A DNA stretch of 39,192 nucleotides from an uncultured Anaerolinea sp. (GCA_964580175.1 CAZOJS010000046.1:1-39192); one strand, 5' to 3'; shown: positions 11,276-37,880, numbered from the stretch's first letter. Translations and numbers: made by a program. The notes: a model not told the origin generated them from the letters alone.

Positions 11276-11396
11276 TGCGATCGATCAGCCGCGACAGGCG
11301 CGGCGCCAGGAAGAAGATACCCAACCCGAACGCTGCCGTACCGATTACGGCGGCGAGCGTCACGAGGATCACGACTTGTTCGAGTACCCAAGTCAC
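11244..11396 (-). CDS. Hypothetical 50-aa single-TM mini-protein between xseA and xseB
   Basis: Manual translation: VTWVLEQVVILVTLAAVIGTAAFGLGIFFLAPRLSRLIDRNDEDAGAGDD*. GTG 11396 overlaps the xseA stop (GTGA). Clear hydrophobic helix followed by an acidic tail. Absent from the ORF track (short). Confidence 0.4.
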   Translation of the reverse strand: MTWVLEQVVILVTLAAVIGTAAFGLGIFFLAPRLSRLIDRNDEDAGAGDD

Positions 11397-12721
11397 GGCT
11401 CGACCCGATCGGCGGTGGCCGGGAACTCGCCGAGCGCGACACGGACCCTCAGCCCGGTGCCGCCCGGGACATGTGCTGGATCTCGGACGATCGCGCCATC
11501 GACGGCCCGGCGGACGATGGCATATCCGCGCCGCAGGGTTGCCGCCGGGCCGAGGGCGCTGAGTGACGCTCCGGCTGTCGCGAGTTGCCCGCCGCTCGAG
11601 GCGAGGCGCCCGCTGACCAGACCAGGGAGACGTTCCGAAAGCCGCTCGTCGCTACGCCGAGCGTCGACCAAACTCGCCCAGATCGCACGGGTGCCGCGCT
11701 CCAGCAGGTCGCCGGCACGTTGGCGGGACGCAGCCAGACGCGTGGCGGGATGGAGTCGGCTCAGCAGCCGCCGCTCCCCGGCGACATCGCGGGCGGCCCC
11801 GGCCACGACCCGCGCGGCAGCACTGCGCATCCGTTCCGCGCCACGAGCCAGGGATGCGGCGAAGTCCGCCCGGTCGGGTACGACGAGTTCGGCCGCCGCG
11901 GACGGCGTCGGAGCGCGCACGTCGGCCGCAAAGTCCGCCAGCGTCACGTCGACCTCGTGACCCACCCCACACACGACGGGTAATCGGTGCGCGACGATCG
12001 CCCGGACCACCCGTTCATCGTTGAACGACCAGAGATCCTCCATCGAGCCTCCGCCGCGGGCGAGAATCGTGACCGTCGGTGCCATCTCGGCGTTGCCCGC
12101 ATGGCGGAGTTCCTCCACGTGCGACTCGAGGCGACGAAACGCTCCCACGATGCTCTGCGCGCTCCCCTCGCCCTGGACTTTGCAGGCCACAAGAAGAACG
12201 CGCGCCAGCGGCCAGCGGCGCGCCAGGACCTGGCAAATGTCCTTCCATACCGCACCGGTCGGCGACGTGATCACGGCGATGACCGTCGGCCGCGCCGGCA
12301 GCGGACGCTTCCGCGTCGCATCGAACAGGCCCTCGTCGGACAGGCGCGCCTTGAGCTGCTCAAACCGGATGGCCAGATCGCCGACCCCGGACGGCTGCAT
12401 CGACTCGACGTACACCTGCAGCGCGCCCTGCGGCTCATACAGGTCAACACGACCATGGATCACGACGCGCAGCCCGGTCTGCGGCTGGAACACCGATCGG
12501 ATGCGCTCATCGCGGAACCACACGCACTGGAGCTGGGACTTCTCGTCCTTGAGCACGAAATATGCGTGGCCGGCCGTCGAGATCGTGACCCGGCCGACCT
12601 CGCCCTCGATCCACAAGTCCCGCAGCTGATCGTCCGCCCGGATGAGCGCAGCGACCATGCGGGCCGCCTCGCTGACCGCGAGAATGCGCAGTCCCGGCGC
12701 CCCTGGCGGTGTGGAACGCAC
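11393..12721 (-). CDS. xseA: Exodeoxyribonuclease VII large subunit
   Basis: 442 aa. N-terminal OB fold (LWIEGEVGRVTISTAGHAYFVLKD), catalytic core (ITSPTGAVWKD...RGGGSMEDLWSFNDE...GVGHEVDVTLADFAAD). GTG start 5 nt after the efp stop. Confidence 0.9.
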   Translation of the reverse strand: MRSTPPGAPGLRILAVSEAARMVAALIRADDQLRDLWIEGEVGRVTISTAGHAYFVLKDEKSQLQCVWFRDERIRSVFQPQTGLRVVIHGRVDLYEPQGALQVYVESMQPSGVGDLAIRFEQLKARLSDEGLFDATRKRPLPARPTVIAVITSPTGAVWKDICQVLARRWPLARVLLVACKVQGEGSAQSIVGAFRRLESHVEELRHAGNAEMAPTVTILARGGGSMEDLWSFNDERVVRAIVAHRLPVVCGVGHEVDVTLADFAADVRAPTPSAAAELVVPDRADFAASLARGAERMRSAAARVVAGAARDVAGERRLLSRLHPATRLAASRQRAGDLLERGTRAIWASLVDARRSDERLSERLPGLVSGRLASSGGQLATAGASLSALGPAATLRRGYAIVRRAVDGAIVRDPAHVPGGTGLRVRVALGEFPATADRVEP

Positions 12722-12726
12722 CGTCG

Positions 12727-13284
12727 TCAGACCCGGGTCTGGTACTCGCCGGTCCGCGTATCGATCCGGACGGTGTCACCTTCGTTCACGAACAGGGGTA
12801 CGGAGACGACGAGGCCGGTCTCGAGCGTTGCCGGTTTCCTGGCTCCCTGGGCGGTGTCGCCCGCAAAACCTGGCTCGCTGGTGACGACGGCGAGCTCCAC
12901 CGTGACCGGCAGCTCGACACCGAGCGTCTCGCCCTGGTAGGTCGTCCGATCGAGGATCATCCCGTCCTTCAGGTACTGCGCCGTTTCGGCCAGCTGATCC
13001 GTTCGCAGGACGAACTGGTCGTACGTGTCGGTGTCCATGAAGTGGTACTCGTCTGCGTCGCGGTAGAGGAACTGCACGGGACGCCGCTCCATCGAGGCGC
13101 GCGGCCACTTCGTGCCGGCCTGGAAGGACCGCTCGACTGTCCCGCCGCGGCGGATGTTGCGGAGGGAGATCCGGACCTGGGCGGAGCCACGACCCATCTT
13201 GATGTGGTGGTAGTCGAGGATCTGCCAGAGTTCGCCGTCAAGTTCGATGGCCACGCCCTTGCGCAGCTCGCCGGTGCTGATCAT
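12727..13284 (-). CDS. efp: Translation elongation factor P
   Basis: 185 aa, full-length three-domain EF-P. Loop KMGRGSAQV at residues 29-37. AGGAG 11 nt upstream of the ATG. Confidence 0.95.
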   Translation of the reverse strand: MISTGELRKGVAIELDGELWQILDYHHIKMGRGSAQVRISLRNIRRGGTVERSFQAGTKWPRASMERRPVQFLYRDADEYHFMDTDTYDQFVLRTDQLAETAQYLKDGMILDRTTYQGETLGVELPVTVELAVVTSEPGFAGDTAQGARKPATLETGLVVSVPLFVNEGDTVRIDTRTGEYQTRV

Positions 13285-13411: not shown

Positions 13412-14656
13412 CTAACTCCCGACCACGATGACGTCTCGGGGAAACAGGGTCATCCGGTCGAGACGGCCCGCCTGCGCGTCGAACAGCACGAGATCCTCGA
13501 TGCGCACGCCGGTCTCGCCTTCGAGGTAGATCCCCGGCTCCACGGAGAAGACCGTCGGCGACGGGAGGGGCGTCGTTGCGGCGCTTCGGCCGAGGGACGG
13601 CAGCTCGTGGGTCGCCAGGCCGATGCCGTGCCCGAGGCCGTGCTGGAACGAAGGCCAGCGACCATCCGCCTCGATGGTCTCCCGGGCGATCCCGTCTATC
13701 GATCGTCCATCCGGAAGCGGCACCCCCTGACGCGCTGCGGCCAGCCCTGCCCGGAGCGCATCGAGGGCCGCGGACTGGGACGCGGCGACTGTCTGATAGA
13801 CGCCGAGATCCCGTGCTCCGGGCTCGCCGACGAACAACGTCCGGGTCATGTCGCTCCGATACCCTGCGACCTGCGCCCCGAAATCGAACAGCAGGACGGC
13901 ACCTGACGGGACGGGCCGGTCGCCCGGCGATCCGTGCGGCAACGCCGCCTCCGCACCCGCGAGACAGGTGACGTCGAAGGCGAGGGCCTCGGCGCCGCCG
14001 GTCCGCATGCGCCACTCGAGGTCCAGCGCAAATTCCGTCTCGGTCACGCCGACCCGGATCGACGGGAGCAGTGAAGCCAGCGCGCGGTCGGCGACCGCGC
14101 ACGCGGCGCCGATCCGTTCGATCTCCGTGGCCTCCTTGACCTGCCGGTCGGCCTCGACCCATCCCTCGACCGGGATGAGCTCCACGCCCGGGTTGGCCCT
14201 GGCGAGTCGCTCCCACGTCGCGTGCGAGACGAAACCGGCCTCGACCGCCACCCGACGCACCCCTGCCGTAGCCACCAGGACGGGCCATCGCTCAACCAGC
14301 GCGTGATAGCACTCGAAGATCGTCGCGTCGGGGGCTTCGCGACTCGCCTGGATCGCGTAGCGACTGTCGGCCAGGACGTGGACCTCGTCGGCCGTGACCA
14401 GGAAGCGGCCCGAATCGCCGGCCGATGCCGTCTCCGTTTCGGCCAGCGTGAAGCCGGTCAGGTACCGCATGTGCTCCCGGCGCACGCCGAAGTAGCCGTC
14501 GACCCCGGCGGCTTCCATGCGTGCGCGAAGCCGGCCGAGCCGAGCGGGCCGCGCCGAACGGTCCGACTCCGCCCAGCCAACCAGATCGGCCCGGGAAGGC
14601 GGCGGCGCAAAGTCGGCCGGGTGCGGCCATCCCGCACTGGATTGTTCCGGTTTCAC
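13412..14656 (-). CDS. Xaa-Pro aminopeptidase / M24-family metallopeptidase
   Basis: 414 aa. Creatinase-like N-domain plus pita-bread fold with metal ligands (FDFGAQVAGYRSDMTRT, HGLGHGIGLATHE, VFSVEPGIY, VRIEDLV). GTGA overlap with the mltG stop. pepP-efp neighbourhood as in Bacillus. Confidence 0.85.
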   Translation of the reverse strand: MKPEQSSAGWPHPADFAPPPSRADLVGWAESDRSARPARLGRLRARMEAAGVDGYFGVRREHMRYLTGFTLAETETASAGDSGRFLVTADEVHVLADSRYAIQASREAPDATIFECYHALVERWPVLVATAGVRRVAVEAGFVSHATWERLARANPGVELIPVEGWVEADRQVKEATEIERIGAACAVADRALASLLPSIRVGVTETEFALDLEWRMRTGGAEALAFDVTCLAGAEAALPHGSPGDRPVPSGAVLLFDFGAQVAGYRSDMTRTLFVGEPGARDLGVYQTVAASQSAALDALRAGLAAARQGVPLPDGRSIDGIARETIEADGRWPSFQHGLGHGIGLATHELPSLGRSAATTPLPSPTVFSVEPGIYLEGETGVRIEDLVLFDAQAGRLDRMTLFPRDVIVVGS

Positions 14657-16041
14657 TGATAGCCGTACTTCGTGCGGTTGGCATTGTGCTCGGCGAGGGT
14701 TTTCGCAAAGACGTGGAGCCCGGACCCGTCCGGGATCGCCAGGAAGTAGATGTAGTCGCCGGCGGTATCAGGCTCGAGGGCAGCGTCGATGGACACAACC
14801 GATGGGCTGCAGATGGGACCCGGGATCAGCCCGCGGTTCTGATAGGTCTGGTAGCCCTGCAAATCGTCCGCAACCTGGACGTTGGCGAGGCCGCCCTCGG
14901 GGATGCTCCAGAAGAAGTAGTTGATCCACTCCTCGAACGCCAACGTGCGCAGGGCCATGGAGTCCGCGGCGAACAGCACGGTCGGGTCGGCGTTCAGGAT
15001 CGTCTTCGAACCACCCTTGCCGTCCAGTCGATTCTGATACGCACCGGCGATCAGCGGGCGCTCCTCATCCACGATTGCTTCACGTTCGACGATCGAGGCC
15101 AGGCTGAGCACCTGGTAGAAGGTCAGGCCCCGGCTCTCGGCGACTTGGAGTCGGACGTCGCCGATCGCATCGTGGAACTTGGTCAGCATCATCCGGACCA
15201 GATCCTCGGCCGTCGTCACCTTGAACGGTCCGCCGTTGGCCGAGGTGACCAGGGTGTAGGTCGCCGGGTACAGGAATCCCTCGAGGCTCGCGCCCTCAGG
15301 AAGCTGCAGCCACGGGTAGTCGGCCAGCAGGGTCGCGTTCGGCGCCGCGGCGAGATCGTAGAACGCCCGTGGATCGACACCGGAATCGACTGTCTGAAGC
15401 TTGGCGACCACCTGTTCCAGGCGAATCCCCTCCCGGAAGGTCACGTCCACCGTCGTCACGGAGATGCGCGCTTCAACCAGGGCGCCGACCAGCTCCAGAG
15501 GCGTCATGTCGCGCCTGAGCAGGAACAACCCGGCCTGCAGGTTTGGCGCGAGGTCCGTCTCGGTCGCCGTGAACATGAACGCGCGCTCGGACGTCACAAA
15601 TGCTTCGTCCTGCAGGCGGGCGGCCAACGTCGGCACGGTTTCGCCGAGCTGGACCTCGAAGACGACCTCCTCGTCCGACCCGGGTGCCGGATCTGTCAGC
15701 GCTGGTCCGAGATCCTCGCGGATCATGTCTGCCACGAACGGGAGCCGAAGCGACCCCGGGTTGTCCCACGCCCAGCCAACCACTGCGGCGCGGACCAGTG
15801 GACGGAGGGCGGTCAACCCGGCGACCACGACCAGCGCCGCCAGCAGGCCCGTGAAGAGGAGGAAGCGGACCAGGCCCGGCAGGCCCGTGGGATGGCCGCC
15901 CCGTCGCTCCGGGCGCCTGCCGCCCGGTGGCCCCCCCCTGCCGTCCGACGCCCGCCACGATGGCATGTCTGCGCCCTCGTACGCGCCCGGCTCCATGCGC
16001 TTCGCCTGATCGCGCGGTCCGCCGCCGCCGCGAATGCTCAC
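14653..16041 (-). CDS. mltG: Endolytic murein transglycosylase MltG (YceG-like)
   Basis: TM anchor FLLFTGLLAALVVVAGLTAL. YceG core (AYQNRLDG...LNADPTVLF...YQTYQNRGLIPGPICSPS...YIYFLA). Start placed at GTG 16041 (GTGA overlap with the ruvX stop). ATG 15996 is an alternative. The 618-aa track ORF overlaps ruvX. Confidence 0.85.
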   Translation of the reverse strand: MSIRGGGGPRDQAKRMEPGAYEGADMPSWRASDGRGGPPGGRRPERRGGHPTGLPGLVRFLLFTGLLAALVVVAGLTALRPLVRAAVVGWAWDNPGSLRLPFVADMIREDLGPALTDPAPGSDEEVVFEVQLGETVPTLAARLQDEAFVTSERAFMFTATETDLAPNLQAGLFLLRRDMTPLELVGALVEARISVTTVDVTFREGIRLEQVVAKLQTVDSGVDPRAFYDLAAAPNATLLADYPWLQLPEGASLEGFLYPATYTLVTSANGGPFKVTTAEDLVRMMLTKFHDAIGDVRLQVAESRGLTFYQVLSLASIVEREAIVDEERPLIAGAYQNRLDGKGGSKTILNADPTVLFAADSMALRTLAFEEWINYFFWSIPEGGLANVQVADDLQGYQTYQNRGLIPGPICSPSVVSIDAALEPDTAGDYIYFLAIPDGSGLHVFAKTLAEHNANRTKYGYQ

Positions 16042-16490
16042 GCGCGCTCCCCGGCGTCGATCTCGTCCTGCAGGATGATGGCGGCAGCCTCGCGATCCAC
16101 CCGCGCACGATAGCGGTCCCGCTGGGTCGGCGAGGGCGGCCCTCCGGAACGCCCGCGCGGCATCTTGCCCATTCGCAATTCGGCTCGATGGCTGCTCAAG
16201 CGCTCGTCGCGGAGGCGAACCGGAAGTCCAAGTGCCTCGCCCAGCCGGGTTGCCCACGCCCGGGCATCCTGGGCCATGGCGCCCTCGTCGCCACCGGCGT
16301 GCAGCGGCAGGCCGACGACAAGCTCGGTGATCTGCTGTTCCGTCACGATCGCCCCGATCGTAAGGACGTCGCCGGCGAGGTCGGCTGAGCGCTGGACGGT
16401 CGTCAACGGGCGGGCCGGCTCCCGTTCCGGATCCGCAATCGCCAGCCCGATCCGCCGCTCGCCGAGATCGATCCCGAGGAGCCGACTCAC
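16038..16490 (-). CDS. ruvX: Holliday-junction-resolvase-like nuclease / pre-16S rRNA nuclease RuvX (YqgF)
   Basis: 150 aa. LLGIDLGERRIGLAIADP N-terminus and the DERLSS motif typical of YqgF. GTGA overlap with the upstream gene. Confidence 0.9.
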   Translation of the reverse strand: MSRLLGIDLGERRIGLAIADPEREPARPLTTVQRSADLAGDVLTIGAIVTEQQITELVVGLPLHAGGDEGAMAQDARAWATRLGEALGLPVRLRDERLSSHRAELRMGKMPRGRSGGPPSPTQRDRYRARVDREAAAIILQDEIDAGERA

Positions 16491-18118
16491 GGTGCCGCAC
16501 CCTGTTCAAGTGTGAGCGTGACCCGCGCCGGGTTGGTCGGAATCGTGGTCACCCAATCGGGCCAGACGGTGATCGTCACGTCGCCATACTCGGCCAGGAC
16601 CGTGCGGGCCTGCGGCAGGCCAAGACCACCGATCTGACTGAGCAGCCCGGCCACGTCAACCTCTCGCGCCTGCAGTGCGCGGACGGTGACGGGAAAGGTG
16701 ATCGTCGTCCCGGCCACGATCGGGCTCCCGACCTCGATCTTGATGGACCCTTCGTCGAGGCTGAAGCCACGGTCCACCGCGGATCGGAGGCGAGCATCGG
16801 CCAACGTTGACACGGGACCGGGGTCGACGCCGAGTACGGTGCCGCGTGCCGACAGGCCCAGCTGGAACGACGTCGCGTCGGTACCCAGCAGCGTCGCGGG
16901 ATCAACGCTCCAGATCGTCGGTCCAAGCGCCTTCGTCTCGGGGAACAGGGTCGTCCCGACCGGCACCCCTGCCTGGCGACCAATCTCCTCCTCGAACTTG
17001 AGCGCGAGTGCCTCGTCCAGCGCAAGGAGCGCCCTGTCCAGATCGACCTGCTGGATCTGCGCGGACTCGGTGTGGCTGCCCCCGCTCGTCGGGGCGTCGT
17101 TCGTGACGATGGTCCGCTTGGCATTCTCCCGTTCCGGAACCACCACGATGGATTCGGCCGGGACATTCCCCGAGACGCCCGGATCTACCGCGTCGACGCC
17201 GGTCTGGCGGGTCGAGGGGACAACCACGAAGTTGCCGCCAACGATCCCGATCTGGGCCGCTGGCAGGGTGATCCCCTCGCGTGTCCGGAATTCGATCCCC
17301 GATTCAGTCTTGACGATGGACCCGGCTGCGATCGTGTTGGATGCGCCGGTGTTCAGACTGGAAAAGGTGACTTCACCCGCGGCCGCCGTGTCGACAACCT
17401 TGACCCCGGTCGCGGGGAAGGTATTGCCGACCGCGAGCTCGAACGTGAACGTCGCTGCCGGCACGAGGAGTGCGATGGGATCCGGCTGCGTGATTCCCGG
17501 CTGGGCGGTGATGCTCAGCTCGATCGGACCAACAGAATCCACGCTCGGACGAAGGACGATCGCCGCGCTCGGCAGCACCTGCAGCCCGGCCACGCCCCCT
17601 GCGGCCAGGAGGACGACGACGCCCAGGAACGCCGCGAGGCCCCGGCCTCGGGTCCTGGAGGCCGGTTTCCGGCCGACCTGGGGTGGCGGCGTGCCCGGCT
17701 TGGGGCTCGGGAGGGACCTGGCCGCCGGCACGACTACGGTCGGGCTGTCCAGCTCACCGTCGGGGCCAACCGGTGCGGCACCGCCCGTCGACGTAGCCCC
17801 CGTGCTCTCCCCACTCGACGGCGGCGTCCGCTTCACGACGGGATCCGAAGTACCGGATTCGAAGGCGGAGACCGAGATGTGGGTCGGCAATCCTGCCGAC
17901 GCAGCCAGCGCCCGAGCCGAGGCGTCTCCGGTCACGATCTCGAGGGTCTTGGTGCGCGTCGTCGCCTCGCGGGCCAGCAGGCGGAAGTTGATCCGCGACG
18001 TCGCCAGCCGCGACCCGTGGGGTAGGACCAGCGCAATGCGGGCCGCCTCGAGGGACCGCATGCGGGCCACCGCCGAGGTGATCTCGTCATCGATGTCGAG
18101 GTAGACGATCGCGGTCAT
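16487..18118 (-). CDS. Bitopic membrane protein of unknown function: soluble N-domain, disordered linker, one TM helix, large beta-rich ectodomain (possibly Baseplate_J-like)
   Basis: 543 aa from ATG 18118, 2 nt after the stop of the actin-fold gene. N-domain IVYLDIDDEITSAVARMR...LEIVTGDASARALAASAGLP. Pro/Ser/Gly linker. TM GLAAFLGVVVLLAAGGVAGLQVL. ~350-aa ectodomain with no catalytic motif recognised. The 823-aa track ORF is a spurious upstream extension. Confidence 0.7.
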   Translation of the reverse strand: MTAIVYLDIDDEITSAVARMRSLEAARIALVLPHGSRLATSRINFRLLAREATTRTKTLEIVTGDASARALAASAGLPTHISVSAFESGTSDPVVKRTPPSSGESTGATSTGGAAPVGPDGELDSPTVVVPAARSLPSPKPGTPPPQVGRKPASRTRGRGLAAFLGVVVLLAAGGVAGLQVLPSAAIVLRPSVDSVGPIELSITAQPGITQPDPIALLVPAATFTFELAVGNTFPATGVKVVDTAAAGEVTFSSLNTGASNTIAAGSIVKTESGIEFRTREGITLPAAQIGIVGGNFVVVPSTRQTGVDAVDPGVSGNVPAESIVVVPERENAKRTIVTNDAPTSGGSHTESAQIQQVDLDRALLALDEALALKFEEEIGRQAGVPVGTTLFPETKALGPTIWSVDPATLLGTDATSFQLGLSARGTVLGVDPGPVSTLADARLRSAVDRGFSLDEGSIKIEVGSPIVAGTTITFPVTVRALQAREVDVAGLLSQIGGLGLPQARTVLAEYGDVTITVWPDWVTTIPTNPARVTLTLEQGAAP

Positions 18119-18120
18119 CG

Positions 18121-19386
18121 TCAGATCCGAAGCTGCCGGACGACCCGTCGAAGCGCGCCGTCGAGACTGCCCGCAGCCTGCCCGAGCTCGATCGCCTGGT
18201 AGGCAAGGCCCATCGGGGTTACGTCCTGCTGATCCACGAGCAGCTGTGTTTCGTCGCGGATCGTCTCGACCTGGTCGGGCGACACGATCGCCACCTCGGG
18301 CGGTCGCGAGAACGGCAGGGCCCTGGAAAAGGCGGGGGCAGCAAGGGCAGCCCGGATTTCCGGGAGGCGGGTGCCGCCTCCGCACAGGTAGATCCGCCCC
18401 GGCAGCAGGTCGCCCGCGGCCAGTTCCTCGAGAACGAGCTCCACACCCGCGGCCCACACGGCGACGTCGTCGGCCACGATCGCCCGGACCTCCTCGGTCG
18501 CGTCGCCCGCGATTCCCCGCGCATAGTCCACTTTCAGCGCCTCGGCTCGGGGAAACGGCAACTCGAGCCGATCGGCGATGGACTTGCTGAAGGCACGTCC
18601 GCCGAGCGCAAACATGCGCGTTCCCTCGATCCCGCCCTGCCGAACCAGGGCGACGTCGGTGGTGCCGCCGCCCACATCGACGAAGAGTGCCCCGCCCTGT
18701 CGAACCTGCTCGCTGTTGAGCGCCCGCGCCACGGCGTACGGCTCTGCGACGACCTCGATCAGGTCGAGTTCCAGTTGCTGTGCGACGCTCTGGAGTGCCC
18801 CGAGGTGCACGAGCGGTGCGAAGGCGTTGAAGATCGAAATCTTGACGTGCCGACCCTTGAAGCCGACCGGATTGGACACGACGTACCCGTCGATCCAGGC
18901 CCCGACAACGGCCGCATGCACCAGACGAACGTCCACGTTGGCAAGGCCGGTCTCCCACGTCACCGAGCGTTCGGCCTCGCGGAGTGCCTCGCGCTGGACA
19001 CCTTCGATGAGCCTCTGGAGCTCGGATTCGGTGATCGGCGCTTCTGGACGAACTCGCTCCTGCGAATGGGCGGTCGTGAAGCCCTTGACGAGTTCCCCGG
19101 CGATCCCGATGACCACCTGGGTGGGACGGAATCCGGCCATCTCCTCGGCTTCCTGGAGGGCAACCGAGCAGTTGTCCACGACGGCGGCGATGTCGGCCAC
19201 CGTTCCGGACTGCATGTGTGACAGCCCCTGGCGCTTGCGCCCGACGCCACGAACGACCCCGCGTCCGTCATCGCCGATCTCGAACACCAGCGCCTTGGCG
19301 AACTCCGTCCCGACGTCCAGTGCGGTGCACGCCGTCAGACGTTCCGACGCGCCCTCCCGCTGCCACAGCCGCCGCAGGAATGTCAT
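18121..19386 (-). CDS. Actin-fold (ASKHA) ATPase, FtsA/PilM-like
   Basis: 421 aa from ATG 19386, 19 nt after the alaS stop. Phosphate-1 ALDVGTEFAKA, phosphate-2 FVDVGGGTTDVALV, adenosine IYLCGGGTRLPEI. Basic-hydrophobic C-terminus GALRRVVRQLRI. Not in a dcw/ftsZ context. Confidence 0.75.
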   Translation of the reverse strand: MTFLRRLWQREGASERLTACTALDVGTEFAKALVFEIGDDGRGVVRGVGRKRQGLSHMQSGTVADIAAVVDNCSVALQEAEEMAGFRPTQVVIGIAGELVKGFTTAHSQERVRPEAPITESELQRLIEGVQREALREAERSVTWETGLANVDVRLVHAAVVGAWIDGYVVSNPVGFKGRHVKISIFNAFAPLVHLGALQSVAQQLELDLIEVVAEPYAVARALNSEQVRQGGALFVDVGGGTTDVALVRQGGIEGTRMFALGGRAFSKSIADRLELPFPRAEALKVDYARGIAGDATEEVRAIVADDVAVWAAGVELVLEELAAGDLLPGRIYLCGGGTRLPEIRAALAAPAFSRALPFSRPPEVAIVSPDQVETIRDETQLLVDQQDVTPMGLAYQAIELGQAAGSLDGALRRVVRQLRI

Positions 19387-19405
19387 CGGGCAGCGCCCAG
19401 CGCGA

Positions 19406-22207
19406 TCATTCGCTCCGGCCGGCTGCTTCGCGGGCGGCCGCCTCGAGGGCAGCCAGGCCGTCCGCGAGCCCGGATCTGCGCGACCCCTTGCCCTGGGCCA
19501 TTTCCGGTTTGCCACCGCCTTTGCCGTCGATTGGCATCATGGCGGCACGAACGAGATCTCCAGCACCGATGCCGCGCGCCACGAGGTCATCTGACACGCT
19601 CACGAACAATTGCGGTTCATCGGCCTCCAGACCGAGGGCGATGACGCCGCTCGGCAGGAGGCCACGCAATTCCTTGGCAACGGCCTTCAGCGCCTCCATG
19701 GACTCCCACTCGGCAGCGGCGATCACACCGGAGACACCCGGCCCGAGCTCCATCGTCGCCGCGACGAGATCGGCAGCCCGCGGCGCCCGACTCGTGGGAG
19801 CCGTGCCTTGCTTCATCCGCCGCTTGCTATCTCTGAGTTCCTCCTGGAGCGCGGCAAGTCGGCCCGCGACACCCGCCGGCGTCTGGGCCCCCAGCGCCTC
19901 CATGGTCGCCTCAACGGTCTCGGAGCGCTCGCGCAGGTAGGCATCCGCGCCCACGCCAGTCAGCGCCTCGATCCGGCGCATCCCGGAACCGATGCTTCGA
20001 TCGGAGGTGATGACGAAGCCGCCGATCTGGCCGGACGCGCGACAGTGCGTGCCACCGCACAACTCGAAGCTGTAGTCCTGAACCCGGATCGTGCGAACGG
20101 TTTCTCCGTACTTCTCGTCGAAGAAAGCATCCGCGCCGGCATCGATCGCGTCCTGCATGCCCATGAAGGCGATCGAAACGGGCCGATCCTCGCGGATGAT
20201 GCGGCGGACCTCGTCCTCGATCGCTCGCCGTTCGTCATCCGTGAGTGCCCGGTCCGCGGGGTAGTCGAAGCGCAGGTACTCCGGAGTGACGAGCGAGCCC
20301 GCCTGCCGGGCGCGATCACCGACGACATTGCGCAGAGCTCGGTGGAGCAGGTGCGTGCCGGTGTGATTGCGCATCGTGTGCGCCCGCCGGTCCGCGTCGA
20401 CCTCGGCAACGACCGACTGCCCGACGGCCAGCTCCCCGCGCAGGATGCCGCGATGGACGAACAGGCCACCGACCGGTTTGTGGGTGTCCTCGACCTCGAA
20501 GAGGACGCTACCGTCCACGGCTCGGATCGCGCCGCGATCGCCGATCTGACCGCCGCCCTCGGCGTAGAACGGAGTCCGATCGAGCACGATCTCCGCGCTC
20601 GCGCCGGCCTCGGTCCGGAGCTCCTCGTCCCCCTTCGCCCTGAGGTTCTCGTATTCAATCCCGTCCCGCAGGATGGCGATTACCTTCGCGTCTGCGACCT
20701 GTGTCGTCTCGTACCCCTCGAACGCGGTATCGCCATTGCGGGCGTTGATGGCCGCGTACATGGCGCTCAGTTCCGCGTGCCGCGCGAGTTCGGCCTTCTT
20801 GCCTGACCGGGAACGATCGCGCTGCTCGGCGAGCGCAACTTCGAAGCCGGTCCGGTCCACCCCGACACCGTACTCGGCGGCTAGCTCGATGGTCAGGTCG
20901 ATCGGGAATCCGAACGTGTCGTGGAGCTTGAACGCGACGTCGCCGGGGATCTTCGGGACGTCATCGGCCAGATCCTCGGGTCGAACGCCCACCGTCCGTT
21001 CGTTCGAGGTCAGCCCGATGAGCGCCTCCTCGAGGATGTCCGTGCCCGCCCTGAGCGTTCGACTGAATTGGGCTTCCTCGCGGGCGATCGCGGCGAGGAT
21101 CTCGTCACGCCGCTCGGCAAGGTGCGGGTAGGCTTCGGCCATCGTGTAGATGACCACATTGGCGGTCTCGACCATGAACGGTTCAAGGCGGCCGAGCAGA
21201 CGGCCGTGGCGGACCGCCCGGCGAAGGATCCGGCGGAGGACGTAGCCGCGGCCCTCGTTGGATGGCAGGACGCCGTCGCCGATCAGGAACGTGACCGCCC
21301 GCGAGTGATCCGCGATGACCTGGTAGCTGAACCGCTCGAGCTCGAACGCACCGGGATCATGGCCGAGCAGTTCGCGCATCCGATCGTGGATCGGCGCGAA
21401 GAGATCCGTGTCGTAGTTCGTCGGAACGCCCTGCAGGACGCTTGCCAGGCGCTCGAGACCGAGGCCCGTGTCGACGCCCGGCGCGGCAAGCGGCGTCAGC
21501 GATCGATCAAGAGCAAGCTCAAACTCCATGAACACGAGGTTCCAGATTTCGAGCCAGCGTGGGCAGTGCTCGGAGTGATCCGGCGTACAGAAGTCGCCCT
21601 CGCTGAACTGGGCTCCTCGATCGAAGTGAATCTCCGAGCAGGGGCCGGCCGGTCCGGTGTCCGCCATCCGCCAGAAATTCTTCTCGTCCCCGTGCTCCCA
21701 GTCGCCCCACCGAGCAACCCGATCGGCCGGCAAGCCGATCTCCGAGCGCCACACGTCGTAGGCCAGGTCATCGGTGGTGTAGACGGTCGCGGCCAGGCGA
21801 TCGGCGGGAATGCCGAGATCGCGGGTCAGGAACTCCCAGGCCCAGTGGATGGCCTCGCGCTTGAAGTAGTCGCCGAAGCTCCAGTTGCCGAGCATCTCGA
21901 AGAGGGTGTGGTGACGGGGTGTCCGCCCGACCTCCTCGAAGTCGTTGTGCTTGCCGGCAACCCGCAGGCAGCGCTGGTAGTCCACCGCCCGGTTGTAGGT
22001 CCGCTGCTCGGCCCCCGTCAGGGCGTCCTTGAATTGGACCATGCCGGAGTTGGTGAACAGCAGGGTCTGATCGCCGCCCGGCACCAGGCTGGCGCTGGGC
22101 ACGATCGTGTGACCGCGCTCGGCGAAGAACTCGACGAACCGGCGGCGGATCTCGGCAGCAGACAGCGGCACGATCCGGGGATCGGCCTGAAACGTCGGGG
22201 TCGCCAT
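19406..22207 (-). CDS. alaS: Alanine--tRNA ligase
   Basis: FTNSGMVQFKD, HHTLFEMLGNWSFGDYFK, editing domain HTGTHLLH and ELCGGTHC, C-terminal DHHA1-like domain. Start taken at ATG 22207 (MATPTFQ...), supported by a TACCAT hexamer 8 nt upstream. The track ORF extends to GTG 22267. Confidence 0.95.
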   Translation of the reverse strand: MATPTFQADPRIVPLSAAEIRRRFVEFFAERGHTIVPSASLVPGGDQTLLFTNSGMVQFKDALTGAEQRTYNRAVDYQRCLRVAGKHNDFEEVGRTPRHHTLFEMLGNWSFGDYFKREAIHWAWEFLTRDLGIPADRLAATVYTTDDLAYDVWRSEIGLPADRVARWGDWEHGDEKNFWRMADTGPAGPCSEIHFDRGAQFSEGDFCTPDHSEHCPRWLEIWNLVFMEFELALDRSLTPLAAPGVDTGLGLERLASVLQGVPTNYDTDLFAPIHDRMRELLGHDPGAFELERFSYQVIADHSRAVTFLIGDGVLPSNEGRGYVLRRILRRAVRHGRLLGRLEPFMVETANVVIYTMAEAYPHLAERRDEILAAIAREEAQFSRTLRAGTDILEEALIGLTSNERTVGVRPEDLADDVPKIPGDVAFKLHDTFGFPIDLTIELAAEYGVGVDRTGFEVALAEQRDRSRSGKKAELARHAELSAMYAAINARNGDTAFEGYETTQVADAKVIAILRDGIEYENLRAKGDEELRTEAGASAEIVLDRTPFYAEGGGQIGDRGAIRAVDGSVLFEVEDTHKPVGGLFVHRGILRGELAVGQSVVAEVDADRRAHTMRNHTGTHLLHRALRNVVGDRARQAGSLVTPEYLRFDYPADRALTDDERRAIEDEVRRIIREDRPVSIAFMGMQDAIDAGADAFFDEKYGETVRTIRVQDYSFELCGGTHCRASGQIGGFVITSDRSIGSGMRRIEALTGVGADAYLRERSETVEATMEALGAQTPAGVAGRLAALQEELRDSKRRMKQGTAPTSRAPRAADLVAATMELGPGVSGVIAAAEWESMEALKAVAKELRGLLPSGVIALGLEADEPQLFVSVSDDLVARGIGAGDLVRAAMMPIDGKGGGKPEMAQGKGSRRSGLADGLAALEAAAREAAGRSE

Positions 22208-22215
22208 CGGCGGCA

Positions 22216-22221
22216 ATGGTA
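22216..22221 (-). promoter_or_regulatory. Putative -10 hexamer TACCAT, 8 nt upstream of the alaS ATG 22207 (leaderless-type)
   Basis: Minus strand reads ccgcTACCATtgccgccgATG. No SD. Confidence 0.35.
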
Positions 22222-22283
22222 GCGGAGCGGAACCCGTGGCCGGCCCGGGTGGCCATGACCGCGCCACGCGGCCACTGAGCGCC

Positions 22284-22499
22284 TCAGCCGGGGCGGTTTT
22301 CCCGATCGATCAGAGGGTCCGTTGGCTGGCCCCGCTGGCGCAGGCGCTCCCAGATCGCGGATCCGGCGATGGCCGCACCCACCAGCGCACCGAGGTACAG
22401 ACCGCGCAGAAATCGAGCCGACACGGCCGGTCCGGTGGTGGCGTCATCCGCCGCCGCTAGCGGGCTGTTCGGGGCGCCCCGACGTCGGCGCCGGCTCAT
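22284..22499 (-). CDS. Hypothetical small membrane protein (71 aa)
   Basis: Arg-rich N-terminus, one hydrophobic helix LYLGALVGAAIAGSAIW. ATGA overlap with the upstream membrane-protein gene. Confidence 0.4.
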   Translation of the reverse strand: MSRRRRRGAPNSPLAAADDATTGPAVSARFLRGLYLGALVGAAIAGSAIWERLRQRGQPTDPLIDRENRPG

Positions 22500-22921
22500 G
22501 CGGAATCCCTTGGTTTGACGTTGGTCACAGCGGACCGGTCGATGGTCGTCGTGTCGGGTTCCATCGGGTCTGGATCGACCAAGGCACGAGCTGCGCGCGA
22601 CCTGGAGAGGGGCATCGACGAGGTCGCCCGGGGGCCCGGCAGCGGATCACGCTTCGGGCGCGAGCCGAGTATCGCAACGATCGCGACACCGGCGATACCA
22701 ACCCAGGCCAGCATCGAGGCCACGATCACGTGGAAGTCGCCGACCATGATCAGGGCAATGTCGAGCCGGGCCGCAAGCGCGTCGCCGGCCCACGCGCCGA
22801 GGAAGGCTGCCAGCACGAGCCACGGCAGCCGCCGGCCGGCCGAACCGCGGATCAGGACGTAGATGGACACGTGGAGGATCCCGAGGAGTAGCGCCAGGAC
22901 GGGCGCCGGTCCAAGACTCAT
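22496..22921 (-). CDS. Hypothetical polytopic membrane protein (141 aa)
   Basis: ATG 22921 overlaps the mnmA stop (ATGA). 3-4 hydrophobic segments (PAPVLALLLGILHVSIYVLI, WLVLAAFLGAWAGDAL, VIVASMLAWVGIAGVAIVAIL), then a hydrophilic tail. The longer track ORF to 23014 overlaps mnmA. Confidence 0.55.
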   Translation of the reverse strand: MSLGPAPVLALLLGILHVSIYVLIRGSAGRRLPWLVLAAFLGAWAGDALAARLDIALIMVGDFHVIVASMLAWVGIAGVAIVAILGSRPKRDPLPGPRATSSMPLSRSRAARALVDPDPMEPDTTTIDRSAVTNVKPRDSA

Positions 22922-24075
22922 GACGCGACGGTTGCCACCAGCCGAGAGGCCGAGTTCCCCGGCGGCTCCTGTCGTGCGCCGGCCGCGCGCACGATCCGCC
23001 CACCACCGAGACACACGTCACCGTCGTAGAGCACGGCTGCCTGGCGCGGCGCGATCGCCCAGACGGGCGTCTCGGTCCGAACGGTCCAGCGATCCCGAAC
23101 GCCCGGCTCCGTGGCCCCTGTCGGGCTGATCGTCGCCTGGATCGGCTCCGCGCGGTGACGAATCCGGACCGCGGCCCGGAACGGCTCGTGGGTCGCGGTT
23201 TCGTCCACGAATCGGACGTCCTCGATCTCGAACGATGTCGTCTCGAGGTCCTCCCGGCGGCCGAGCGTGATGGTGTTCGAGATCGTGTCCACCCGGGACA
23301 CGTAGCGCGGGCTGCCGAGAGAGATGCCCAGGCCCTGGCGCTGGCCCGGCGTGTACCCGGCGGCGCCAGCGTGCTCCCCGACCTGCCTTCCGTCCGTGTC
23401 CAGCACGGAGCCTCTCGCGGGCTCCCAGCCGGCGCGCGTCTTGAGGGCGCCACGGACGTCACCGTTCGGAATAAAGCAGATGCCCTGGCTCTCAGGCTTG
23501 TCAGCAGTCGCCAGGCCAAGACGTCGCGCCGCCTCGCGGACCTCGGGCTTGGTCAGTTCCCCGAGCGGGAACCGCGCTTCGCGGAGCTGGTCCTGGCGCA
23601 GGCCGTACAGGAAGTACGTCTGGTCCTTGTCCTCGTCACGGGCACGCAGCATCCGGGTCTGGCCATCCGCAGCGACCTCGCGGCGGGCGTAGTGGCCGGT
23701 CGCGACGGCCTCGCAGTCGTAGAGGTGGCGCGCCTGCCCCAGCAACGCCCCGAATTTGACGGTCGTGTTGCAGTCCACGCAGGGGCTGGGCGTCGTGCCA
23801 TCCAGATAGGCCGCGAGAAACGGCGAAAGAACGCCCTCGTCGAACTCGCGTTCCAGATTGAGCACGTAGAACGGGATGTCCAGCTGACCGGCAACACGGC
23901 GCGCATCCTCGGCGGCATCGAGCGAACAGCAGCTCTTCTTGAACTCGGAGATCGAATCGGCGACGTCGTGCAGGCGCATCCAGACGCCGATGACCTCGTG
24001 GCCTTCGTCCTTGAGCAGGGCCGCAGCGACGGATGAATCAACGCCGCCGGACATGGCCACCAGGATGCGGCTCAT
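22918..24075 (-). CDS. mnmA: tRNA 2-thiouridine(34) synthase MnmA
   Basis: 385 aa. PP-loop VAMSGGVDSSVAA, catalytic Cys regions (CCSLD, PSPCVDCN), TGHYAR, DQTYFL. ATGA overlap with the cysteine desulfurase gene. Confidence 0.95.
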   Translation of the reverse strand: MSRILVAMSGGVDSSVAAALLKDEGHEVIGVWMRLHDVADSISEFKKSCCSLDAAEDARRVAGQLDIPFYVLNLEREFDEGVLSPFLAAYLDGTTPSPCVDCNTTVKFGALLGQARHLYDCEAVATGHYARREVAADGQTRMLRARDEDKDQTYFLYGLRQDQLREARFPLGELTKPEVREAARRLGLATADKPESQGICFIPNGDVRGALKTRAGWEPARGSVLDTDGRQVGEHAGAAGYTPGQRQGLGISLGSPRYVSRVDTISNTITLGRREDLETTSFEIEDVRFVDETATHEPFRAAVRIRHRAEPIQATISPTGATEPGVRDRWTVRTETPVWAIAPRQAAVLYDGDVCLGGGRIVRAAGARQEPPGNSASRLVATVAS

Positions 24076-35064: not shown

Positions 35065-36741
35065 TCAGACGCCCCAACCGAGGTCGGCCAGGCCGGCTTC
35101 CGCCGCTGCCCGCTCGTTCCACGGTTGGGCAGACGTTGCTTGCAGGATCGTCGTCTCGTGGCCCTTGCCGGCCAGCACGACCACGTCTGCCGGATGGGCA
35201 CGGCGCAACGCCTCGTGTATTGCCGTCCGCCGATCGGCGATCTCGAGGATGAGTTCGGCCCGCCCGACGGCTCGGGCACCGGCCGCGATCTCCGCGAGGA
35301 TGACGTTCGGGTCCTCGCCGCGTGGGTCTTCATCGGCGATCACGACGACGCGGCAGCGCTCCGCTGCGACGCGCCCGAGCATCGGCCGCTTGTCGCGATC
35401 CCGTTCGCCGGCCGAGCCGATGACGACGATCAGGCTCCCGCCGCGACCAGCCGCCCTCGCGCCGAGCTCATCGAGAACGGTGGCCAGCGACGCTGGACTG
35501 TGGGCGTAGTCGATGACCACATCGAACGGCTGTCCCCGATCCACCCGCTCCATGCGCCCCGGCACGGCGCCCATCCGCTCAAGCCCGCGCTGGACAGCTG
35601 CCGGGTCGAGCCCGATGGCCCGGCCGAGCGCCACGACCGCCAGCGCGTTATGGGCGTTGAAGTGGCCGGCGAGCTGGAGCCGCAGGTCCGCCCGTCCATC
35701 GACAGTCTGGTAGGCGATCCGGAGGCCGTTCCCGTGGTCCACGGCGTCGATCAGCCGGACGTCGGCACCGGCCGCACGGCCGTAGGTGAGCAACCGGGCA
35801 CCGGCGTCAAGGGCGGCCCGCTGGAATACCGCGGTCGCCGGATCGTCGGCGTTGACGATCCCGGTCCGCGGCCAGTCGAGGTCGGGCGCGCTCCGCCTGG
35901 ACGGTATCTCCGCCAATCGATCGAACAGGGAGCGCTTGGCGTCCCGGTATGCCTCGAAGGTCCCATGCAGGTCAAGATGTTCGTGGGTCAGGTTCGTGAA
36001 CACCGCGACGTCGAACGAGACGGCGGCAACGCGGTCGAGCGCCAGCCCGTGCGATGTCGTCTCGAGAACGACCGCGCGATCGCCGGCCGATACCATCGCC
36101 CGGAGGGCCCGTTGGAGCGCCGGCGCCTCGGGGGTCGTGCTGTGCGCGGCATTCGGCTCCCGGGTGCCCCCGATCTGGGTCGCCACCGTACCGAGAAGAC
36201 CAACCTGGATCCCGGCGGCCTGGAGCGCCTCGGCGGCCAGCAGGCACGTCGTCGTCTTCCCGTCTGTGCCGGTGATCCCGATCACCCCGAGTTCGCGAGA
36301 TGGATCTCCGTACCACCAGGCCGCGGCCTCGGCCAGCGCGCGCTGGGCCGAGGGCACCACCAGCTGCGGGATGGCCACGTCTTGGATCGGACGCTCCACC
36401 ACCGCGGCCGCCGCACCGTTCGCGAGCGCCGACGAGAGGTGGTCGTGGCCATCCGCATGCGCACCGGGGATTGCCACGAAGACGGATCCGCTGCGCACCT
36501 CCCTCGAATCGGCGACCAGACCGCTGACCAGCACCGAGCGGCCTGCCGCGCCCGGTTCACCCTCCCCTCCGGACGGATCCAGGGCGACCAACGAGGCGCC
36601 GCCGAGACGAAGACGAGCGACGAGGTCGGCAAGCGGTCGAGGCGCCGATGGTTCGGCCGCAGCGAGAAGGGCGGCGATGCCGCCTGCCGATCCGGCCGAT
36701 CCCACCGATCCGGCCGATCCCGTCTTGTGCCGCTCGCTCAT
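35065..36741 (-). CDS. murE: UDP-N-acetylmuramoyl-L-alanyl-D-glutamate--diamino acid ligase (MurE)
   Basis: 558 aa from ATG 36741 (ATGA overlap with the upstream fem gene). P-loop GITGTDGKTTT, Mur ligase middle and C-terminal domains, specificity motif DEDPR (35320-35334). N-terminal Gly/Ser/Ala repeat. Confidence 0.85.
   Translation of the reverse strand: MSERHKTGSAGSVGSAGSAGGIAALLAAAEPSAPRPLADLVARLRLGGASLVALDPSGGEGEPGAAGRSVLVSGLVADSREVRSGSVFVAIPGAHADGHDHLSSALANGAAAAVVERPIQDVAIPQLVVPSAQRALAEAAAWWYGDPSRELGVIGITGTDGKTTTCLLAAEALQAAGIQVGLLGTVATQIGGTREPNAAHSTTPEAPALQRALRAMVSAGDRAVVLETTSHGLALDRVAAVSFDVAVFTNLTHEHLDLHGTFEAYRDAKRSLFDRLAEIPSRRSAPDLDWPRTGIVNADDPATAVFQRAALDAGARLLTYGRAAGADVRLIDAVDHGNGLRIAYQTVDGRADLRLQLAGHFNAHNALAVVALGRAIGLDPAAVQRGLERMGAVPGRMERVDRGQPFDVVIDYAHSPASLATVLDELGARAAGRGGSLIVVIGSAGERDRDKRPMLGRVAAERCRVVVIADEDPRGEDPNVILAEIAAGARAVGRAELILEIADRRTAIHEALRRAHPADVVVLAGKGHETTILQATSAQPWNERAAAEAGLADLGWGV
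36687..36722 (-). repeat. Four tandem 9-nt units (ccgatccgg / ccgatccca / ccgatccgg / ccgatcccg) inside the murE 5' region
   Basis: Read directly from the plus strand. On the coding strand it encodes the GSAGSVGSAGSA repeat of the MurE N-terminal extension. In frame (multiples of 9). Confidence 0.6.
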
Positions 36742-37880
36742 CGGGCGATGACCCGCGACAGACGCGCGAGGGCTCGCCCCATGGCATACCGACGCGGCCG
36801 AAGGATGATTTCGTGCGCTCCGCTCATCGCGACCCACTTCGCCCCGAAGGCTCGCTTGTGTTCCGCGAGGCCGTACATGGGTTCACCGGCGACCGGCTCG
36901 CGGCGAGCGCCCGGCAGGTCGACCCCGCCGAGGTCCATCTCCGCGCGACCCTCGCGAATGGCCAGCTGAATGGCCCGCCAGCGGAGCAGGTGGAGCGCCC
37001 CCGGGTGGCCTGTCCGGGCGGTCGCATCATCTGCGGAGTGCGCGGTGCTGAGCCGACCGCCGTGCCGGTACAGCAGCAGGCCGCCGATCGGATCGCCATC
37101 GACCGTGCGGGCCTCGAGGAGCACGAGCAGTCGGGCCGCGAAGGCCGCCCGCCACCAGCCGACGAACGCGGCCCGCGGCCCAAATCCGAAGTGACGCCGT
37201 TCGCCCGTGGCCAGAAGCAGGTCGTAGAAGCGATCGAGCGCGGCATCGATCCCCTCGGCGGGCGCCACGAAACCCTCGTCGAGGTCGGCCGTCGCGGCCG
37301 ATGTCGGGACTCCCCGGCCGCTCGAGTCCGGCCCGTGCGCACCGAGCGCGTCGTGGCACACGATCTGGATGCCGTCCCGCTCCGCGCCCCGGATGCGCTG
37401 GCGGGTTGATCTGGCGACCTGGCTGAAGACCGAGGCCTCGTCGGCCCCGTGGCCGAGGGGCAGGCTGTACCGATGCCGCGACGGCTGGATCTCCTCGATC
37501 TGGTGAAACCCGGCCGACTGGAGGAGCGCGGCATATCCGGTATCAGCGGGAACCTCGGCATCCGAGGCGACGACGTCCACACCGTGATCCCGCAGCCACG
37601 CTGCAACAGCGGAGGTTCGCGCAGCCATGGCGACCGCCTCGCCGGCCGGGATCGGTCCGCGCGGCAGGTAGGCACTGCCGCCACCGATGAGCGGCCAGGT
37701 TCGCTCGAGCGCGAGCACGGCGGATCCGTCGCCGAGGACCAGGTGATGCGGCCGCCACCCGGAAGCGGTCCGATGGCGAGCCCAGGCCATCGATTGGAGC
37801 ACATGGCCGCCGCCCGGATGGACGGTCAGGTCGTCCCACGCCTCGAGCTCGCGGGGCCCGGCCGGCCGAACGTCGATCAT
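36738..37880 (-). CDS. FemAB/FemX-family peptidoglycan aminoacyl-tRNA transferase (paralogue 2, more divergent)
   Basis: 380 aa from ATG 37880. HVLQSMAWARHRTASGW, ...LLLYRHGGRLSTAHSADD...HPGALHLLRWRAIQLAIREGRAEMDLGGV...YGLAEHKRAFGAKW match the tandem GNAT-like FemX layout. ATGA overlaps on both sides. Confidence 0.75.
   Translation of the reverse strand: MIDVRPAGPRELEAWDDLTVHPGGGHVLQSMAWARHRTASGWRPHHLVLGDGSAVLALERTWPLIGGGSAYLPRGPIPAGEAVAMAARTSAVAAWLRDHGVDVVASDAEVPADTGYAALLQSAGFHQIEEIQPSRHRYSLPLGHGADEASVFSQVARSTRQRIRGAERDGIQIVCHDALGAHGPDSSGRGVPTSAATADLDEGFVAPAEGIDAALDRFYDLLLATGERRHFGFGPRAAFVGWWRAAFAARLLVLLEARTVDGDPIGGLLLYRHGGRLSTAHSADDATARTGHPGALHLLRWRAIQLAIREGRAEMDLGGVDLPGARREPVAGEPMYGLAEHKRAFGAKWVAMSGAHEIILRPRRYAMGRALARLSRVIAR

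Follow-up and report, generated by a model that had tools for sequence, protein, structure and literature searches.

The DNA examined here, a stretch of 39,192 nucleotides from an uncultured Anaerolinea sp. (GCA_964580175.1, CAZOJS010000046.1:1-39192; below, the window), carries two adjacent minus-strand genes lying between alaS and ruvX, the products of which are referred to as protein A and protein B. Protein A (421 amino acids; 18121-19386) and protein B (543 amino acids; 16487-18118) both begin with ATG. Upstream of A lies alaS, the gene for alanyl-tRNA synthetase (19406-22267), and downstream of B, on the same strand, follow ruvX (YqgF; 16038-16490), mltG (YceG; 14653-16041), a gene for an M24 Xaa-Pro aminopeptidase (PepP; 13412-14656), efp (12727-13284) and xseA (11393-12721). 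These were recognized as open reading frames or by their place in the same gene series, and at the same places in homologous loci the products contain the Pfam domains tRNA-synt_2c/tRNA_SAD (alaS), RuvX, YceG and Creatinase_N/Peptidase_M24.

The genes are tightly packed. Nineteen nucleotides separate the alaS stop from the ATG of A, and the A/B junction reads TGA-cg-ATG, leaving 2 nt between the stop of A and the start of B. The stop of B and the start of ruvX overlap in GTGA, as do the stop of ruvX and the start of mltG, and 4 nt are likewise shared by the mltG stop (14653-14655) and the GTG with which the aminopeptidase gene starts at 14656; B, ruvX, mltG and the aminopeptidase gene are in this way chained by start/stop overlaps of 4 nt. 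The original prediction, made from the sequence of the window, had described the two coding sequences, their coordinates and these spacings, all of which were confirmed. The GC content of the A and B genes (0.685-0.696) is the same as that of their flanks. The window contains no ftsZ, mreB or phage genes, and when it was searched by tblastn together with 84 related loci for ftsZ, mreB and a canonical ftsA, the sole match was A itself.

Protein A was compared with family models, with structures of known proteins and with reference sequences. In Pfam it matched FtsA (5.5e-13) and part of MreB_Mbl (2e-9); PilM_2 scored 16.5 bits, below its 27-bit cutoff. Its best NCBIfam match by far was the FtsA equivalog TIGR01174, at 103.9 bits, which is under the cutoff of 175.85 and covers model positions 3-258 of 371 only; the pilM model TIGR01175 gave 26 bits against a cutoff of 133, and mreB models 26-28 bits, TIGR00904 (MreB) scoring 26 against 365.75. 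The best match in the PDB by sequence (phmmer) was again FtsA, at 3e-14 across residues 21-292 of A. When a profile of A homologues was compared by hhalign with Escherichia coli FtsA, 242 columns (A residues 20-289) were aligned, at a probability of 97.8% and an identity of 29%, whereas with E. coli MreB the alignment covered just 71 columns around phosphate-2; the two E. coli reference sequences were validated through their behaviour in tblastn and hhalign. A also gave a weak match to a PHROG "partition protein" (E 0.0035). In the databases it is named "cell division protein FtsA" (JGI), "FtsA domain-containing" (NCBI) or, in some NCBI records, "rod shape-determining protein".

The three ASKHA nucleotide motifs that had been noted in A are present and were found to be invariant in 22 homologues. 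The phosphate-1 motif (ALDVGTEFAKA, residues 22-32; 19291-19323) consists of invariant columns and aligns with that of E. coli FtsA, and the phosphate-2 motif (FVDVGGGTTDVALV, residues 235-248; 18643-18684) is likewise invariant and aligns with both FtsA and MreB. In the adenosine motif (IYLCGGGTRLPEI, residues 332-344; 18355-18393) C335, G336, G337, G338, L341 and E343 are invariant, and P342 is at least 90% conserved. Between the first two motifs, residues ~97-175 (18862-19098) may correspond to an FtsA-type 1C (SHS2-like) insert with a longer helix: in the hhalign alignment residues 100-173 of A pair with residues 87-146 of E. coli FtsA, the 1C insert region. Pfam SHS2_FTSA had no match in A, and the AlphaFold2 (AF2) model is of low confidence at the same region. 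The C-terminal third of A (residues 290-421) did not align with FtsA, either through TIGR01174 or by hhalign. It is in this part that FtsA binds FtsZ, the C-terminal peptide of FtsZ being bound via subdomain 2B. By these alignments A is an actin-fold ATPase of the FtsA type, its nucleotide motifs being intact, and its placement in the FtsA/PilM class rather than the MreB class is supported. The order of Foldseek matches for the low-confidence model (FtsA, PilM, EutJ, MreB) lends weak support only.

Both ends of A carry a basic helix. At the N-terminus, residues 2-12 (FLRRLWxRE; 19351-19383) form a basic-hydrophobic helix with a hydrophobic moment of 0.57, in which M1, R5, R6, W8 and R10 are invariant. 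The C-terminal helix (LDGALRRVVRQLRI, residues 408-421; 18124-18165) is amphipathic and basic, with a moment of 0.71-0.72 and a net charge of +3 to +4. Its segment GALRRVVRQLRI, with a helical hydrophobic moment of 0.72 and a charge of +4, stands at the 98th percentile among the 12-mers of A, and the E. coli FtsA membrane-targeting helix reaches 0.57 and +3 on the same measure, which agrees with the proposal of the original prediction that the C-terminus of A could target the membrane. The family mean for this helix is 0.66 with a charge of +4, and both terminal helices keep their character in a divergent clade in which A is 64-70% identical to that of the window. No transmembrane (TM) segment was found in A.

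The AF2 model of protein B is confident, with a mean predicted local distance difference test score (pLDDT) of 86 and values above 90 in its domains. Residues 1-88 (17855-18118) are modelled as a cytoplasmic alpha/beta domain (beta-alpha-beta-alpha-beta-alpha; pLDDT >90), followed by a disordered cytoplasmic linker rich in Pro, Gly, Ser and Thr (residues 89-157; 17648-17854; pLDDT <50 over 91-156), which is of low complexity and varies from 6 to 197 amino acids among family members. A single TM helix with a preceding basic juxtamembrane stretch occupies residues 158-181 (17576-17647); B has one hydrophobic segment (residues 160-181), the Kyte-Doolittle maximum being at 161-179 and the model helix at 159-180. 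Since six Lys/Arg residues precede the helix and one follows it, the predicted topology is N-in, and on model and hydropathy B is an N-in bitopic membrane protein, the remainder of which (residues 182-543; 16490-17575) would lie outside the cytoplasm. The domain plan that had been sketched for B (N-domain, linker, one TM helix, beta-rich ectodomain) agrees with both.

For the N-terminal domain of B, sequence searches of Pfam and the PDB gave nothing significant. No other part of the protein is as conserved as this domain, which has the motif YLDxDDEITSA...LVLPxGSRxATSRINF[RK]LLAREA...D..RALAxSAG, and appears to be an undescribed domain family. Neither Pfam nor NCBIfam reported a POTRA/FtsQ family in B at E<=1 to 10, NCBIfam giving zero matches overall, and no helix-turn-helix (HTH) or RodZ family was matched.

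The ectodomain of B resembles baseplate wedge proteins of the J/gp47 type, and "baseplate J/gp47 family protein" is the database name of B. Residues 244-353 (17060-17389) pass Pfam Baseplate_J (PF04865), scoring 25.9 and 26.9 bits where 21.1 are required, which bears out a likeness that the original prediction had put forward, and the same domain is precomputed for nearly all B homologues. B also matched PHROG 6, "baseplate wedge subunit" (6e-8). In Foldseek the model was aligned with baseplate wedge proteins of many contractile-tail phages and of the antifeeding prophage (AFP) at probability 1.0 over 335-450 columns, which is about the whole length of J/gp47-type proteins, with E-values down to 3e-8 in the PDB and 1e-9 in BFVD, where many of the models are "Baseplate J-like". 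Examples are 8kea, 9gb2, 9euf, 9ki1 of phage Mu, 9ndy and 6rao of AFP; 9gb2_A aligns with the barrel of B at 27% identity over 111 columns (root-mean-square deviation, rmsd, 5.1). The invariant residues of the ectodomain are mostly glycine, proline and aromatic, and include the C-terminal VWPDWVTTIP.

That C-terminus was also noted in its own right. The segment VWPDWVTTIPxxxxR (16490-16570) is nearly invariant within a region that averages 43% identity, and is a candidate functional or assembly site.

The distribution of the pair was followed through B, for which 1665 homologues were retrieved at E<=1e-3 (90% clustering); in a library clustered at 50% identity, the number of related clusters rose from 1077 at E<=1e-30 to 5431 at E<=1e-10 and 8506 at E<=1e-3. 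The named homologues belonged to Chloroflexota or Candidatus Limnocylindrales. When a 34%-identical member was used to seed a third search for homologues, the labels among the matches listed were almost all Chloroflexota/Limnocylindria. Relatives occurred in at least 524 species when GTDB was scanned with one genome for each species; there too the labels given among the matches listed were almost all of this kind, apart from a few oddly labelled metagenome-assembled genomes, and the loci inspected showed an unchanged gene order. As far as seen, the pair is restricted to one largely uncultured class. The GC content of the window (69%) fits the 68.9% published for Limnocylindria, the genome size of which is given as 2.39 Mb (PMC10608941). 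Five loci of the Limnocylindria type (L022, L028, L029, L039 and L020) occur in metagenome-assembled genomes labelled Eisenbacteria, Dormiibacterota, Patescibacteria, Thermomicrobiales and Sulfomarinibacteraceae; their A proteins are 79-85% identical to that of the window, and these contigs are probably mis-binned or mislabelled.

Gene order was compared in 80 loci from GTDB species and four more obtained via exact look-ups, which, with one duplicate, made 83 distinct loci. The order alaS-A-B-ruvX-(mltG)-pepP-efp was found in 83 of the 83 wherever the flank exists, with A directly upstream of B in every locus that has the flank and a spacer between them that measures 2 nt in many cases and stays below 25 nt in most. 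The neighbourhood survey called for by the original prediction returned the pair with tiny spacers, and always beside ruvX, in every flanked locus. The arrangement is unchanged in the divergent clade, where B is ~505 amino acids long with a short linker and is 34-37% identical to B of the window. The trio alaS-ruvX-mltG is an old arrangement of the Terrabacteria (alaS-yrrK-yrrL in Bacillus subtilis; Rv2555c-Rv2553c in Mycobacterium tuberculosis), so that A-B is an insertion into it.

In 18 of 84 related loci alaS and A are separated by an additional gene, specifying a polytopic membrane protein of ~190 amino acids without a Pfam match (for example L003, 3409-3993, and L002, 8176-8745). It is lacking in the window, where the interval is 19387-19405, and is present in the window's nearest relative. 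The copies are 44-100% identical to that of L003 and are spread over subclades; the module may have in this protein a third, accessory component.

Constraint was measured as mean pairwise identity over 36 genomes. By this measure A (80.7%) evolves about as slowly as elongation factor P (EF-P; 83.0%) and more slowly than alanyl-tRNA synthetase (AlaRS; 72.3%), with PepP at 66.6% and RuvX at 61.3%. Protein B is uneven, its overall identity of 45.7% being made up of 67.9% in the N-domain, 26.8% in the linker, 30.3% in the TM helix and 45.1% in the ectodomain. The cytoplasmic head of B is far more constrained than its exposed body, a pattern which fits a cytoplasmic interface combined with a faster-evolving outward module.

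Taken together, these data point to A-B as a module of two genes, inherited vertically throughout the class Limnocylindria, in which an actin-like protein bound to the membrane is tied to a structure on the membrane's outer face, a reading to which we give a probability of roughly 50%. Under it, A would lie on the inner leaflet, held there by its terminal helices, and would oligomerize in an ATP-dependent manner as do FtsA, PilM and MreB. It would dock the conserved N-domain of B (we infer an A-B interface), which the flexible tether and TM helix would join to the wedge-like ectodomain. In baseplates the wedge fold self-assembles into rings. The ectodomain of B might oligomerize on the surface or engage peptidoglycan or the wall, and the position or state of a cytoplasmic A filament could in this way be relayed outward via B; cell division or wall growth is the process most likely to be served. 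Protein A may be either the FtsA of this class, diverged and relocated, or a paralogue present in addition.

A number of observations weigh against this reading. The whole ~20-kb block (alaS...efp-xseAB-dxs) is conserved across the class, and the adjacency of A and B may represent frozen synteny. For the same reason a functional link cannot be deduced from the proximity of mltG: the tie to MltG that the original prediction had drawn comes down to synteny, which is uninformative in a block frozen class-wide. In a mirror-tree comparison the partial correlation of A with the B N-domain (r 0.47) was no better than that of A with PepP (0.58), and no ftsZ, mreB or peptidoglycan synthase gene adjoins the pair. 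With a pLDDT of 51 the model that AF2 gave for A is poor, which we attribute to a shallow alignment of 22 homologues that are 80-91% identical to A, and statements on the fold of A are mostly based on sequence. As for B, the Foldseek TM-scores to J proteins are 0.15-0.25 with rmsd above 30 Å except in the barrel; in the model the order and types of domains agree with those of wedge proteins, and the packing may differ. The ectodomain has no catalytic-looking set of invariant residues, which makes any activity ascribed to it a guess, and no wedge partner (gp7/I/TssG-like) was found near A-B.

Among the alternatives, it is a real possibility that A is the only FtsA of the class, diverged, relocated and serving as the membrane tether of the Z-ring, and that B is a lineage-specific divisome protein, recruited by way of FtsA, in the role of FtsN or FtsQ/DivIB. 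FtsA tops every search made with A (NCBIfam, PDB, Foldseek and hhalign), the C-terminal amphipathic helix is of the FtsA style and the JGI name agrees; the equivalog cutoff was nevertheless missed by a wide interval, the NCBI name goes only as far as "FtsA domain-containing", and residues 290-421, without FtsA alignment, are those that in FtsA bind FtsZ. The original prediction had set against itself the cases of A being simply the canonical FtsA and of B being FtsQ/DivIB, and the family searches spoke against both, through the TIGR01174 score of A and the lack of any POTRA/FtsQ match in B. In genomes as small as about 2.4 Mb a single FtsA-like gene is plausible, but A lies beside ftsZ in 0 of the 83 loci, and ftsA and ftsZ are adjacent in other Chloroflexota, namely Dehalococcoidales and SAR202 (PMC10608941).

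It is improbable that A-B is an elongation-type pair like MreB-RodZ, positioning lateral wall synthesis together with MltG, the co-transcribed glycan-strand terminase. The architecture of B (folded cytoplasmic N-domain, TM helix, beta-rich outer domain), the translational coupling to ruvX-mltG, a conservation of A comparable to that of EF-P and the "rod shape-determining protein" of some NCBI records would all suit such a pair. However, the alignment of A with MreB is confined to 71 columns near phosphate-2, its 26 bits are far from the 366-bit cutoff of TIGR00904, and its insert is predicted to be of the FtsA 1C and not the MreB 1B type; B matches neither HTH nor RodZ families, and the mltG linkage is unspecific in a block that is syntenic as a whole.

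Still less probable is that A-B serves a surface appendage or a device for secretion as its inner-membrane platform, in the manner of PilM-PilN/GspL, in which a ring of J-like ectodomains would anchor an extracellular structure. PilM is the second-best structural match of A and is also weakly matched through PilM_2 and pilM, proteins of the J/gp6/TssF type are generally known to build tube-anchoring rings, and the Foldseek matches of B include the AFP baseplate 6rao. Neither the window nor any other locus, however, contains pilN/O/P/Q, pilB/C, sheath, tube, gp25/W or gp7/I/TssG-like genes; PilM_2 stays at 16.5 of the required 27 bits, and the N-domain of B is folded where PilN has a short peptide. 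The broader proposal of a pair in the style of PilM-PilN or FtsA-FtsN held in so far as A is FtsA/PilM-class and B is an N-in bitopic protein; in detail B is not like PilN or FtsN, since it has a folded cytoplasmic domain of 88 amino acids rather than a short peptide, and an ectodomain that by its model is baseplate-wedge-like.

Searches of viral contigs (IMG/VR) found no relatives of B, and in the PADLOC defence search B had no match and A a marginal one only (E 6.6e-4, 16.5 bits). The last alternative, that a prophage remnant has been domesticated or a phage-related decoy is at hand, in the form of the whole pair or just of B, without a cytoskeletal role and with its place beside A a historical accident, has in its favour that Baseplate_J is otherwise a component of phages, tailocins or type VI secretion systems (T6SS) and that A weakly matches the PHROG "partition protein", but it is very improbable and was rejected on housekeeping context, conservation and the IMG/VR scan, the pair occupying the same locus in 83 of 83 cases and in at least 524 species under strong purifying selection, with native composition, no further phage genes nearby, no significant PADLOC match, and a TM helix and conserved cytoplasmic domain foreign to phage J proteins.

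Returning to the two-gene module tying A to the outer face, a bolder version of it, which we regard as speculative and somewhat unlikely, is that early in Limnocylindria a baseplate-wedge protein of phage origin became, by domestication, the outer half of a transmembrane cytoskeletal machine, driven by a distinct, actin-like FtsA paralogue that coexists with or has replaced the canonical FtsA, with wedge rings or arrays on the surface organizing division or wall growth. If true, this would be a divisome or elongasome component of a kind unseen in model bacteria.

The remaining genes of the window are of a housekeeping nature (relA, hisS, aspS, typA, iscS-like, mnmA, dxs, tlyA, nadK, xerC-like and scpA), together with genes for a MurE-type ligase and FemAB proteins. 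The MurE-type Mur ligase (35065-36837) has a long N-terminal extension and adjoins relA, outside any cluster of genes for division and the cell wall (dcw); it is preceded by two FemAB-family genes (~36738-37800 and 37877-38959). This combination suggests a branched peptidoglycan cross-bridge and a dispersed set of cell-wall genes in this lineage. The mltG product (14653-16041) possesses an Arg/Gly/Pro-rich cytoplasmic N-terminal extension of ~50 amino acids ahead of its TM helix. Between mnmA and alaS an open reading frame of 172 amino acids (22496-23014) has no Pfam match, and its hydrophobic stretches suggest a membrane protein; relatives carry one or two small unannotated genes at this position.

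The Limnocylindria, a class of Chloroflexota once known as Ellin6529, are commonly met with in soil and in lakes. Being as conserved as EF-P and yet failing the definition of FtsA, protein A is a strong candidate for a core, unstudied component of division or growth. The automatic names could mislead, those of A (FtsA, "rod shape-determining protein") in censuses of the divisome and that of B ("baseplate J/gp47 family protein") in the prediction of prophages. In the searchable literature no paper treats FtsA or actin-like proteins together with Baseplate J, and none speaks of a pair of this kind in Chloroflexota or the candidate phyla radiation (CPR), in keeping with the expectation that A-B is undescribed. 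The proposed module, if real in function, would add a fourth actin-to-envelope coupling to FtsA-FtsN, PilM-PilN and MreB-RodZ, and would show clearly how a structural fold of viruses can be recruited to a function of the host cell envelope.

Compared with the known systems, A shares with FtsA the three nucleotide motifs and the C-terminal amphipathic helix and may also share the actin fold with a 1C insert, and its pairing with an N-in bitopic protein recalls FtsA-FtsN/FtsQ. It differs from FtsA in falling below the equivalog cutoff, in the unaligned C-terminal third, in an extra conserved N-terminal amphipathic helix, and in its location, which is not beside ftsZ or in the dcw cluster but always between alaS and B. 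Where FtsN and FtsQ have a short cytoplasmic peptide and a SPOR or POTRA domain, B has the folded 88-residue domain and a baseplate-like ectodomain. With PilM-PilN/GspL the pair has in common an FtsA-like ATPase gene directly upstream of that for an N-in bitopic partner, and by its model A is structurally similar to PilM; PilM_2 and TIGR01175 nevertheless score far below their cutoffs, no pilO/P/Q or ATPase genes lie nearby, and B is unrelated to PilN.

The likeness to MreB-RodZ lies in an actin-like protein, very conserved, with a bitopic partner whose TM helix joins a folded domain in the cytoplasm to a beta-rich one outside, and in the presence of a wall enzyme (MltG) in the neighbourhood; A, however, is not MreB-type and B is without HTH or RodZ domains. 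As to Baseplate J/gp47, T4 gp6 and TssF, the barrel of B lies above the Pfam gathering score and the ectodomain aligns by Foldseek with nearly a whole wedge protein. In contrast to those proteins, B is found in a chromosomal housekeeping context without tail or contractile injection system (CIS) genes, carries in addition a TM anchor, a disordered tether and a cytoplasmic domain that is novel, is predicted to be exposed outside the cell, and has low global TM-scores. The A-B pairing is real and robust, and is best filed as an extension of the theme of an actin-like ATPase with a bitopic partner, here one with an unexpected ectodomain of predicted phage fold and an undescribed cytoplasmic domain.

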